64,000 nucleotides of DNA from Bacteroidota bacterium (GTDB lineage: Bacteria; Bacteroidota; Bacteroidia; 2-12-FULL-35-15): positions 1,491 through 65,490 of the forward strand of contig CANJPX010000011.1 of the NCBI GenBank assembly GCA_947476185.1, in the 5' to 3' direction. Position 1 is the first letter of the stretch. Each line of letters starts with the position of its first letter. Positions 10,371 to 35,042 of this stretch are shown in pieces. Made by a program: the position numbers and the translations under genes. Below the pieces are notes generated by a model. That model worked only from the letters and a program-made list of their open reading frames with translations. It searched no databases and was not told the DNA's origin.

Positions 10371-10397
10371 TCCCCCTTCGAAGGGGCAGGGGGATGA
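10371..10397 (+). repeat. Intergenic copy of the GC-rich hairpin (REP-like) element
   Basis: TCCCCCTTCGAAGGGGCAGGGGGATGA; near-identical to the in-frame leuS copy at 33849-33877. Confidence 0.8.
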
Positions 10398-10407
10398 AGG
10401 CAAATTA

Positions 10408-31841: not shown

Positions 31842-34800
31842 ATGGAATACAATTTCAGAGAAGTAGAAAAGCGGTGGCAGGCCTTTTGGGCGGAAAATAA
31901 AACGTTTCGTGCTGAAGACAGATCGTCCAAACCAAAATATTATGTATTGGACATGTTTCCTTATCCAAGCGGTGCGGGATTGCATGTAGGTCACCCATTA
32001 GGATATATCGCTTCCGATATTTTTGCACGTTACAAACGTCTGAAAGGATATAATGTATTGCATCCGATGGGTTACGACTCCTTTGGACTTCCTGCAGAGC
32101 AATATGCAATTCAAACAGGACAACATCCCGAAATAACTACTAAAACAAATATTGCACGTTACCGCGAGCAATTGGATAAGATCGGATTTTCATTTGACTG
32201 GGACAGGGAAGTGCGCACTTCAAATCCCGATTATTACAAATGGACACAGTGGATCTTTATTCAACTTTTTAATTCATGGTATAATCCCGAAACGGATAAA
32301 GCAGAAAATATTTCTACGTTAATAGAAAAATTACGGAGCAATACCCTCTCCTTTGGAGAGGGCCGCGGTGAGACATTCTCCTCTCTTTCCGAAAAGGAAC
32401 AATCTGATCTATTGTTAGAACACCGGCTTGCATATCTAAGCGATACAATGGTGAACTGGTGTCCGCAATTGGGTACTGTACTCGCTAATGAGGAAGTGAA
32501 AGATGGTGTTTCTGAACGTGGCGGTTATCCCGTTGAACGGAAGTTGATGAAACAATGGAGCATGCGTATCACCGCTTATGCGGATAGATTATTGAAAGGT
32601 CTGGATGGCATCGACTGGACAGAATCTATCAAGGAAGCACAACGAAATTGGATAGGAAAAAGTGAAGGAACAAGTTTAAAATTCAGCCTCGCCCCTAATC
32701 CCTCTCCAAAGGAGAGGGGAAGCGAACCCGGTTATCATACTGCTAATAAAAAAATATGGGAAATATTAAAAGAGCATTCCAGAGAAAATAGAAAAAATCA
32801 AACTGAATCAGAACAAATACTTTGGGAAAAGGTTCGTGATAGCAGACTAGGTTTTAAAATAAGGAGACAACATGCAATTGATAATTTTATTGCAGATTTT
32901 GCTTGTCTTGAAAAAAAATTAATTATCGAAGTCGATGGTAAGATACATGATTCTCAGCAAGAATATGACGAAGGAAGAACATATCGTTTAGAAGAAATAG
33001 GATATAATGTTATTCGTTTTTCAAATGATTCTGTGAAAAATAAAATTGATTGGGTGTGCAGCGAAATTGTTAAGGCGTTGCAATCACCCCTCTCCTTTGG
33101 AGAGGGGCAAGGGGGTGAGGCTTTTATTGAAGTATTTACCACAAGACCCGACACGATCTTCGGAGTTTCTTTTGTTACGCTTGCTCCGGAGCATGAATTA
33201 GTTTCACAACTTACCACACCTCAACAAAAAAAAACAGTTGATGAATATATCCTGTTTGCAAAAAATCGCAGTGAACGCGAACGAATGGCGGATGTAAAAA
33301 AGATATCCGGAGTTTTTACCGGAGCCTATGTTCTTCATCCCTTCACCGGAAAACAAATTCCGATCTGGATCGGTGATTATGTGTTGGCCGGTTACGGAAC
33401 AGGCGCTGTAATGGCGGTTCCCGGACACGACTCGCGCGACTATGCCTTTGCAAAACATTTTGAAATTGATATTATTCAAGTTGTTCTCCCCCCTTCTCCT
33501 TTGGAGAAGGGGCCGGGGGATGAGGCCTACGATGCAAAGGAAGGCAAATTAATAAATTCCGATTTCTTAAATGGATTGGAAGTGAAAGCAGCTGTTAAAA
33601 AAGCAATTGCTGTTATTGAAGAAAAATCTTTAGGAAAAGGCAAAACGAATTTCCGTTTGCGCGATGCTGTTTTTGGCCGTCAACGTTATTGGGGTGAACC
33701 AATTCCTGTATATTATGAAAATGGTATTCCGAAAGTTTTAGATGAAAATGAATTGCCATTAGTACTTCCTGAAGTAGATAAATATTTACCAACCGAAAGC
33801 GGTGAACCACCATTGGCACGTGCTACAAATTGGAAGTACAGGCCAAAATCCTCCTTCGAAGGGGGCAAGGGGGATGATGCCTATGCATACGAACATTCTA
33901 CAATGCCCGGATGGGCAGGCTCATCCTGGTATTTTTTACGATACATGGATGCACACAACCGGAAAGAATTTGTGAGCAAAGAAGCCGTTGATTATTGGCA
34001 AAATGTTGACCTATACATTGGTGGTGCAGAACATGCAACAGGACATTTATTATACGTTCGTTTCTGGACAAAATTTTTAAATGATCTTGGATTAATTCCT
34101 TTTTCAGAACCCGCTAAGAAGTTGATCAATCAAGGGATGATACAGGGGGTGAGTAGTTTTGTATACAGAATAGAAAATTCAAATAAATTTGTTTCAATTG
34201 GCTTAAAAAAAGATTTTGAAACTACAGCACTTCACGTTGACGTAAATATTGTAAACAACAATACATTAGATATAGACGCTTTCAAAAACTGGAGAGAAGA
34301 ATATAAGGATGCAGAATTTATTTTGGAAGATGGGAAATACATCTGCGGAAGTGAAGTAGAAAAAATGTCCAAATCGAAATGGAATGTTGTGAGTCCGGAT
34401 CTGATGGTTGAACAATACGGCGCAGACTGTTTGCGCTTATATGAAATGTTCCTCGGTCCGCTTGAACTTTCCAAACCATGGAATACAAACGGAATTTCAG
34501 GTGTTTCAAATTTCATCCGTAAACTTTGGAGGTTGTATCAAAAGGACGAGACATTTTCTGTTTCCAACGAAGCTGCAACAAAACCGGAACTAAAAGCATT
34601 ACACAAAACCATCAAAAAGATCATTCATGATATTGAAAATTTCTCTTTCAATACTTCTGTGAGTAGCTTTATGATCTGTGTAAACGAATTAACAGATCTG
34701 AAATGCAATAAACGTGAAATTTTAGAACCGCTAGCCATCATCATTGCTCCGTATGCACCTCATCTTGCAGAAGAACTCTGGAAAAACTTGGGTCATGCAG

Positions 34801-35042
34801 AAACGATCACCTACGCTGCTTTCCCTGAATGTATCGAATCGTACCTCGTTGAAAGCACTTTCAGTTATCCCGTTTCCTTTAACGGGAAAACGCGCTTTTT
34901 TCAGGAATACGACCTTTCATTGAACAAAGAACAAATAGAAAAAGAAGTATTGACCCTTGAACAAACTCAGAAATACCTAGATGGAAAAGCACCTAAAAAG
35001 GTCATCGTGGTTCACAATAAGATCATAAATATTGTCGTTTAA
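31842..35042 (+). CDS. leuS: Leucine--tRNA ligase with in-frame DUF559 cassette and repeat-derived inserts
   Basis: [14 protein letters not shown] (HIGH), TTRPDT and [14 protein letters not shown] (CP1 editing domain), KMSKS; 1066 aa. Confidence 0.97.
32344..32372 (+). repeat. In-frame solo hairpin element in leuS (peptide [10 protein letters not shown])
   Basis: CCCTCTCC-TTT-GGAGAGGG-CCGCGGTGAG. Confidence 0.85.
32685..33122 (+). mobile_element. Inverted-repeat-bounded DUF559 (Vsr-like) endonuclease cassette fused in frame within leuS
   Basis: Left AGCCTCGCCCCTAATCCCTCTCCAAAGGAGAGGGG, right CCCCTCTCCTTTGGAGAGGGGCAAGGGGGTGAGGCT (inverted); core R.NQTESE..LW..VR....[24 protein letters not shown].....YD..R...L...GY.VIRFSN; mobility is inferred, not shown. 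Confidence 0.8.
33490..33526 (+). repeat. In-frame solo hairpin element in leuS (peptide [12 protein letters not shown])
   Basis: CCCCTTCTCC-TTT-GGAGAAGGGG-CCGGGGGATGAGGC. Confidence 0.88.
33849..33877 (+). repeat. In-frame solo hairpin element in leuS (peptide [10 protein letters not shown])
   Basis: TCCTCCTTCGAAGGGGGCAAGGGGGATGA; matches the intergenic copy at 10371-10397. Confidence 0.8.

Follow-up and report, generated by a model that had tools for sequence, protein, structure and literature searches.

Palindromic units read in frame within a Bacteroidota leuS gene and their association with DUF559 nuclease genes

Short palindromic repeats and nuclease genes that reside inside bacterial genes have been described more than once. 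Already known, as far as the sources describe them, are the in-frame Rickettsia palindromic elements (RPEs; Ogata et al. 2000, as described in PMC10969869 and PMC3733652), repetitive extragenic palindromes (REPs), which have been reported inside genes as well (PMC3733652), Vsr-like homing endonucleases (Dassa et al. 2009, PMC2677866), and the ShiLan insertion, in which a phage methylase carries a concealed HNH endonuclease in frame (PMC11855218). Here we describe a 64,000-nucleotide stretch of a Bacteroidota genome (assembly GCA_947476185.1, contig CANJPX010000011.1, positions 1,491 to 65,490 of the forward strand; hereafter the window), in which leuS, the gene for leucyl-tRNA synthetase (LeuRS), carries five short palindromic units. 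Two of them form the ends of an in-frame cassette with a DUF559 nuclease domain, and three are solo copies elsewhere in the gene, to which attention had been drawn by a prediction made from the letters of the window alone (the original prediction). With a probability of roughly 55%, we interpret the solos as in-frame 30–45-nt units of a dispersed palindromic family whose inverted pairs bracket DUF559 genes, and as the nuclease-free, non-autonomous form of that family.

The system outlined in this way resembles REPs and their REP-associated tyrosine transposases (RAYTs) in its logic, and RPEs in its lifestyle. Like RPEs in their published descriptions, the units are palindromic, apparently selfish DNA lying in frame in many unrelated housekeeping genes, where the extra residues appear compatible with the fold, and the comparison with RPEs made in the original prediction was apt. 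The same descriptions also set them apart, as the units measure 29–45 nt against ~100–150 bp for RPEs (PMC10969869), are read in several frames with no conserved peptide family, occur in a Bacteroidota-like host, are physically tied to a nuclease gene, and are intergenic in 43 of 67 cases. In the account of PMC3733652, REP/RAYT systems (REPtrons) likewise consist of short GC-rich imperfect palindromes (20–40-nt class) in tens of copies with lineage-specific sub-families, with an associated gene between inverted units, dispersed solos and clusters, and some copies inside genes at recurring sites. However, the bracketed gene here encodes a Vsr-like PD-(D/E)xK nuclease of family DUF559 (PF04480) and not the Y1 HUH transposase of that account, and inspection of the units revealed no GTAG or CGTC tag of the kind that PMC3733652 gives as a REP feature at one end. 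Membership of the REP/RAYT class is ruled out, since the source genome (92% complete) gave no match to PF01797, the Y1 transposase family of RAYTs, in a search in which control genomes did match. A miniature inverted-repeat transposable element with target-site duplication is ruled out as well, because none of the comparisons of filled with empty sites showed a duplication.

Two nuclease systems come close to the cassette itself. Vsr-like homing endonucleases, as presented in PMC2677866, are also Vsr-fold-class nucleases within conserved genes, in intein-free inserts that are patchy at fixed sites; there, they are free-standing open reading frames (ORFs) that split the host gene, or they lie in introns, whereas the leuS cassette is read through in frame and has palindromic termini and solo satellites. 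The cassette has homing-type traits in that its site is shared by divergent hosts, it is patchy among close relatives and same-species empty alleles exist; its DUF559 domain matches PDB 3r3p ('Mobile intron protein') only at E 0.23. The ShiLan insert is similarly in frame, nuclease-bearing, homing-like and neither intein nor intron, but it contains an HNH enzyme and resides in a phage, and the opening of its abstract names no palindromic solo derivatives (PMC11855218). An intein was considered and rejected for leuS, as a Pfam search of the whole LeuS protein returned only aminoacyl-tRNA synthetase (aaRS) families, DUF559 and MTES_1575, and no Hint or protein-splicing domain. In the literature within our reach, which leaves out subscription-only papers and supplements, we found no paper in which DUF559 is connected with palindromic repeats or with an in-frame location inside LeuRS.

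Five palindromic units in one leuS gene

The leuS gene (31842..35042, forward strand) encodes 1066 amino acids (aa), matches Pfam tRNA-synt_1, tRNA-synt_1_2 and Anticodon_1 as well as PDB 1h3n (E 1.3e-178), and is open from end to end across all five units. Its cassette spans 438 nt (32686..33123, forward), with bounds taken from comparison with a cassette-free allele, and is read as the DUF559 domain at aa 310-414 (32769..33083, forward; PF04480, E 3.7e-33; 114.1 bits against a Pfam gathering cut-off of 20.6). The right terminal unit, c3 (33087..33121, forward), serves as the reference copy of the family and is the top nhmmer match (E 2.9e-9), and the left one, c2 (32686..32719, reverse), is inverted relative to it, the two being 89% complementary over 28 nt. 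The solos lie on the forward strand on both sides of the cassette. Solo c1 (site 1, 32344..32372, aa T168-E177) has an 8-bp stem CCCTCTCC/GGAGAGGG, a TTT loop and the G-rich tail CCGCGGTGAG; c4 (site 2, core 33490-33527, aa P550-A562) has a 10-bp stem that its flanks (33483..33527, from aa 549) lengthen to a palindrome of ~15 bp; and c5 (site 3, core 33849-33881, aa S670-A680; 33841..33881 with pairing outer flanks) has a decayed core and the tail GGGGGATGATGCC. Coordinates, peptides and frames of the three solos agree with those given in the original prediction, and its count of five copies, cassette ends included, is borne out by a repeat search of the window that groups c1-c5 as one family.

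The units follow one plan: the pyrimidine-rich strand of a stem of 8-10 bp and its complementary purine arm enclose a loop of 3 nt, and a spacer of 3 nt then leads to a G-rich tail of GGGGnGAGGC type. They stand out, as had been noticed, from an AT-rich background (GC 0.64-0.69 vs 0.394 for leuS). Reading frames differ between copies: c1 is read as CTC TCC TTT GGA GAG and c4 as CCT TCT CCT TTG GAG. Allowing at most two mismatches, the core pattern CCYTCTCCWWWGGAGARGG occurs four times in the window; 100 shuffles averaged 0.01 occurrences, and none of them reached four. The fifth unit, c5, falls outside these four matches because its core palindrome is mismatched, and it belongs to a different sub-family from the cassette ends, of the type CCCCCTT..AAGGGGG..GGGGGATGA. 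When folded as DNA hairpins, c1-c4 gave z values of -2.5 to -1.5 relative to shuffles, and c5 folded no better than shuffles (z -0.24). The palindromes of c4 and c5 run into both cassette-type termini, giving a two-tailed form, and c1 and most solos found at site 3 are single-tailed. A homopurine mirror repeat (GGAGAGGGG ... GGGGnGAGG), made up of purine arm and tail, is present in c3 (33099-33121) and in the family consensus and on paper could adopt triplex DNA or a two-tetrad G-quadruplex, and in some copies, such as c5, the tail can alternatively pair with the left arm.

At the protein level, the original prediction placed the solo peptides in tolerant, variable loops, and this is supported by an alignment and by a structure model. 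In a HMMER alignment with Thermus thermophilus LeuRS (PDB 1h3n), all three peptides fall in lineage-variable stretches: c1 lies inside aa 145-192, a stretch without counterpart in 1h3n, c4 aligns with a loop late in the editing domain, and c5 with a CPKCGG stretch that we take to be a zinc knuckle; the cassette enters at about residue 236 of 1h3n, at the entry to the editing domain. An AlphaFold2 model built from 65 LeuS sequences, with a mean predicted local distance difference test score (pLDDT) of 79, places all three peptides in coil, with lowered values throughout. These are below 50 at aa 173-175 (c1) and aa 671-676 (c5), and average 63 at aa 551-560 (c4), where the neighbouring blocks have 87 and 83; values below 50 were also obtained for the two linkers of the cassette (aa 286-306 and aa 416-425).

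A dispersed repeat family and its DUF559 genes

We searched the source genome (G000; 4.25 Mb in 220 contigs, 36% GC) with a structural scan and nhmmer, and placed the hits on a crude ORF map covering 0.904 of the genome. This gave 67 units in several sub-families that vary in stem and tail, with the five leuS copies as the top five nhmmer matches. Counted genome-wide, 43 units are intergenic, 22 lie inside ORFs and two at ORF edges. The cassette-type sub-family is mostly found inside ORFs, and the other sub-families are mostly intergenic, among them a unit of the c5 type elsewhere in the window (10373..10398, forward; converted by the window offset from C11 11863-11888). Units inside ORFs occur in both orientations, and their hosts, read by eye without a family search, include HisS, GltX, DnaG, MetH, methylmalonyl-CoA mutase, PyrF and the E1 component of a 2-oxoacid dehydrogenase; the unit in HisS reads SPFEGGKGDE, nearly the c5 peptide. 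In 41 related genomes, the core hairpin CTCTCC-N2-6-GGAGAG is present in 0-66 copies per genome, against 0-2 for a reversed control pattern, so that here too, as in the window, the motif exceeds what base composition would give.

A tblastn search found four full DUF559 genes in the source genome: the copy in leuS, an in-frame copy in a MetH-like frame of 1407 aa, and two free-standing genes, one of which lies at C13 43632-43937. All four are bracketed by inverted units, each pair with its own stem and tail variant, the tails pointing outward at the two in-frame copies and inward at the two free-standing genes. At 20 further DUF559 loci in 16 relatives (12 in frame, 8 free-standing), a hairpin scan made without a shuffle control found matching GC hairpins on both sides in 17 of 20 and on one side in 3 of 20. 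DUF559 was detected in 31 of 41 genomes, and its counts correlate with those of the core hairpin (Spearman 0.54, n=41; 0.40 within the genus; 0.78 in 16 genomes of other families), with p-values that overstate the correlation because the genomes are mutually related. As for the nuclease itself, 137 in-frame DUF559 domains share a motif, including the DF and E.DG..H positions, that is consistent with constraint and with a working enzyme; the closest solved chain to the domain is PDB 3hrl (E 3.4e-19).

The MetH-like ORF lies outside the window (C9 1827-5957), with its DUF559 at C9 5055-5387 and inverted hairpin ends of its own variant, of CTCTCCCC/GGGGAGAG type. A cassette-type solo, read as SPLLRRGAGGEA, occurs 1.3 kb upstream of this DUF559 (C9 3745-3777), so that both in-frame DUF559 hosts of the genome carry an extra solo. 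One of the free-standing DUF559 genes (C12 65299-65610) adjoins tandem repeats of ~95-97 bp with one CCCCTCT/AGAGGGG hairpin per repeat (C12 65653-65777 and C31 36441-36753), and because both arrays reach contig ends, the assembly was probably broken inside one longer array. A weak partial DUF559 match in Pfam (C82 12418-12582; 33.9 bits, profile positions 42-95), in an open frame of 531 aa, may be a decayed in-frame cassette.

In-frame DUF559 domains are not confined to the source genome. Searching a protein collection with the cassette region alone (proteins of 586-1866 aa) gave 472 matches at E <=1e-5, of which the best 120 were examined. These are mostly Bacteroidota LeuS and include methionine synthases and IcmF/methylmalonyl-CoA mutase (MCM)-type mutases; 17 of the best 120 have two DUF559 domains, and one MetH has three. 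Public records give some such proteins no name other than 'DUF559 domain-containing protein'. P0001, P0030, P0099 and P0100 comprise methionine synthases with three and two in-frame DUF559 domains and IcmF/methylmalonyl-CoA-mutase-type proteins with one; MetH and the mutases share the B12-binding family PF02310, which may be coincidence. Within these best 120, 97 are LeuS of more than 800 aa, a sample biased by its choice for similarity to the main-site nuclease, and their cassettes occur at two places only: the main site (reference positions 269-277), filled in 69 of 97, and site 3, filled in at least 7 of 97, where pairwise mapping splits some inserts. Unit-like peptides, judged by eye, recur at about eight LeuS positions in the same sample, including sites 1, 2 and 3.

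Occupancy of the leuS sites in relatives and populations

LeuS is present in all 41 related genomes, with open frames of 859-1204 aa. Our alignment comprises 22 full or near-full LeuS out of 30 loci (L001-L030), a filter for frames of at least 800 aa with the word KMSKS having removed L008, L015, L017, L018, L020, L022, L026 and L029; L020 and L015 were examined afterwards at the DNA level only. Units occupy site 1 in 4 of 19 scorable sequences, site 2 in 4 of 22 and site 3 in 5 of 22, and the empty forms are conserved even in distant taxa, so the solos are, as had been proposed, nuclease-free family members that constitute insertions relative to orthologues. At site 1, L006 and L011 have the c1 unit too, L009 has one that is decayed, and the unit is missing from L004, L007, L010, L024 and L028 as well as from distant taxa with a longer native segment. 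Site 2 has a near-identical 40-nt unit in L003 and L019 and one read in another frame in L005, and the remaining LeuS have native sequence of similar length. Site 3 holds cassette-type units in L003, L006 and L021, a third type in reverse orientation in L019 and the c5 type in the window, and is without insert in the 17 other LeuS. Site 3 has thus been occupied by at least three sub-families in both orientations, and site 2 by units in two frames. The main cassette site contains cassettes in L001-L005 and L012 and solos in L006, L023 and L020, the left flank of these solos resembling the complement of the tail. In G036, a full DUF559 cassette with similar-style termini was seen at site 3 at the DNA level. 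By contrast, neither the 22 orthologues nor the 97 DUF559-bearing LeuS among the best 120 of 472 matches showed a cassette at site 1 or 2.

It had also been proposed that the DNA of the units, and not the peptide, is conserved. The differing frames point this way, and so do third codon positions: at identical residues, site 1 shows matching third positions in 8/9, 7/8 and 8/8 cases and site 2 in 11/12, 12/13 and 12/13, against a gene-wide identity of 0.46-0.59. We looked for orthologues with the same peptide over a broken palindrome and saw none; in L009, whose genome (G004) has no DUF559 match, the peptide has decayed alongside the palindrome. In a LeuS tree from which the insert columns were omitted, carriers are spread over the branches and sister taxa differ, with parsimony changes of four at site 1 (four carriers), four at site 2 (four), four at site 3 (five) and six for the cassette (six), counts that are rough because 7 of 19 inner forks of the tree are unresolved. 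Gain, loss or allele exchange is fast at the scale of species within the genus.

Public sequencing runs extend this to populations. Parts of the stretch are present in 20 runs, none of which is recorded as RNA, and we compared contigs from four of them (four samples, four studies), reading the comparison only where the stretch has contig cover. Two runs from two other studies, X5 and X9, each have one contig close to the window: that of X5 differs by 6 letters over 844 nt and by 1 over 717 nt, and that of X9 by 11 over 844 nt and by 1 over 150 nt. Both contigs connect 32685 to 33124 through 21 other letters, which in frame make a native-like loop of seven codons. The 438-nt cassette is therefore present or absent within essentially one species, between contigs ~99% identical, and the cassette-free allele of X5 and X9 is not a deletion scar. 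In cassette-free X5, c1 and c4 are intact, as is c1 in X9, and neither contig extends to c5; G at 32366 and 32373 makes the c1 tail of both more canonical than that of the window. A contig of a further run, X3, also spans the cassette site; the 27 other letters that it has there match the empty form of L007 exactly. Joints of 32718 to 32344 and of 33124 to 33888 were taken as assembly paths through repeats or other loci, and were not used. The 21-letter empty allele holds a 10-nt palindrome, TTCAGCTGAA, that could be a target of the nuclease.

Alternative explanations and the origin of the units

For our preferred interpretation of the solos as non-autonomous units of a DUF559-linked family, we propose the following mechanism. 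The DUF559 nuclease would nick or cut at the palindrome or at preferred targets, repair of the break would then use another copy as template for a unit or for an entire cassette, and inside genes the survivors would be those copies that keep the frame in tolerant surface loops. Many in-gene copies can survive because the reference unit has no stop codon in five of six frames and yields Gly/Pro/Ser/Glu-rich, linker-like peptides. More tentatively, at slightly less than an even chance, DUF559 genes and units together might constitute an undescribed two-part selfish element, a splicing-free, in-frame homing cassette with REP-like satellites that the nuclease generates or mobilises. Such an element would colonise loops on the surface of essential enzymes throughout Bacteroidota, with LeuRS, MetH and IcmF/MCM-type mutases among them, and would keep adding new loop sequence to these. 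If the link to DUF559 is true, a very common domain of unknown function would gain a role in maintaining or spreading a palindromic repeat family, and the logic of REP/RAYT systems would have arisen independently with a different enzyme. The in-frame copies in LeuRS, MetH and other hosts reveal loops of essential enzymes that accept 10-150 extra residues, and in-frame units may be a steady source of new protein sequence. They also call for caution in annotation and phylogenetics, as inserts make aaRS genes range from 859 to 1204 codons in one genus sample.

As to where the leuS solos came from, the original prediction saw them as products of local spread, deposited close to the nuclease cassette in cis. 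This is only partly supported. Units do cluster: of the 67 in the source genome, 11 are found no more than 2 kb from a DUF559 gene, where 0.24 would be expected, and five of the 67 are in leuS alone. Deposition by the resident cassette is not supported, since the X5 and X9 contigs keep c1 (X5 also c4) without a cassette, the cassette-free orthologues L006, L019 and L020 bear three, two and three solos, respectively, and c5 belongs to another sub-family. With cassette-free contigs and orthologues both keeping solos, those of leuS are not demonstrably progeny of its cassette, and because the same loops have been hit repeatedly in many lineages, a preference for certain sites or a filter for tolerance is no worse an explanation of the clustering than spread in cis.

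Several points weigh against the interpretation of the solos as mobile units of a DUF559-linked family. No target-site duplication was seen in any filled-versus-empty comparison, be it of sites in orthologues or of cassette-free contigs, and filled alleles substitute several native codons and are not pure additions of DNA; taken together, these fit recombinational replacement better than transposition. At site 1 the flanks differ as well between filled and empty alleles (PKLKG..FDKL vs EKFRSGS..VWDAL), so that exchange of whole alleles could yield the patchiness without mobility of the units, and the inferred numbers of changes on the LeuS tree are rough. The synonymous conservation could stem from recent independent insertions and not from selection. 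The correlation between DUF559 and hairpin counts across related genomes is moderate, and the flanking of DUF559 loci in relatives comes from the uncontrolled hairpin scan. One genome, G018 (91% complete), lacks a DUF559 match in spite of its 33 core hairpins, and another, G025, has two DUF559 matches and no hairpin of the CTCTCC-N2-6-GGAGAG core; either the system involves other sub-families or enzymes, or units outlive the nuclease. To our knowledge, no biochemical activity of DUF559 has been reported, and that the units are translated is something we infer, given that the sole full-length leuS match listed in the genome has an open frame.

Solos could instead be scars of former cassettes, lost through a deletion between direct repeats in the stem halves of the two terminal units that left one unit with one or both tails. 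This is an attractive idea for the main site and site 3, where solos sit at positions that hold cassettes elsewhere (for site 3, in G036 and in at least 7 of 97 LeuS among the best 120 of 472 matches), and it would account for the tail complement in the left flank of main-site solos, for the flanks of c4 and c5 that carry the palindrome into both termini, and for a cassette that is polymorphic within a species. For sites 1 and 2 and for the intergenic copies it is unsupported: neither site has a cassette in the 22 orthologues or in the similarity-biased sample of 97 LeuS from those 120, c1 and most site-3 solos lack a second tail, and the 43 intergenic and ~17 other in-ORF units face only four full DUF559 genes in the source genome. 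The X5/X9 allele, moreover, shows that the cassette-free state there consists of native codons with no scar. As a general account of the solos we regard scars as unlikely. Less probable still is that the units do not move at all and serve as recognition or recombination sites on leuS alleles that spread by homologous recombination, in a homing-like co-conversion. Differing flanks at site 1, native codons that are replaced and not interrupted, the separate change that nearly every carrier needs on the gene tree, and presence or absence of the cassette between ~99% identical contigs would all follow from it; it leaves unexplained, however, the 43 intergenic copies, the in-ORF copies in about a dozen unrelated genes, the differing sub-families, frames and orientations at one and the same site, and the 0-66 range of copy number between genomes. 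Finally, the position of units at domain borders and in loops, and their Gly/Pro/Ser-rich peptides, might suggest a function for the host, either as flexible linkers or as RNA hairpins that pace translation at domain borders. We think this very improbable, as the peptides vary by frame while the DNA is kept, most close relatives have no units, and copies decay (L009; c5); the same low standing applies to compositional chance, which is excluded by the shuffles and the reversed-pattern control.

The LeuS alignment contains insertions of other kinds as well. An AT-rich short repeat (AAAGTTC-like, read KFKVQS...) is found in the site 1 and cassette-site loops of the cassette-free L025, L027 and L030; it could be a small repeat of a second kind or be native to these loops. 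Alignment columns 860-1080, before KMSKS, hold unrelated insertions of tens to ~200 aa (in L003, L004, L019, L024, L027 and others) that are neither hairpin units nor DUF559, this region being hypervariable in the genus.

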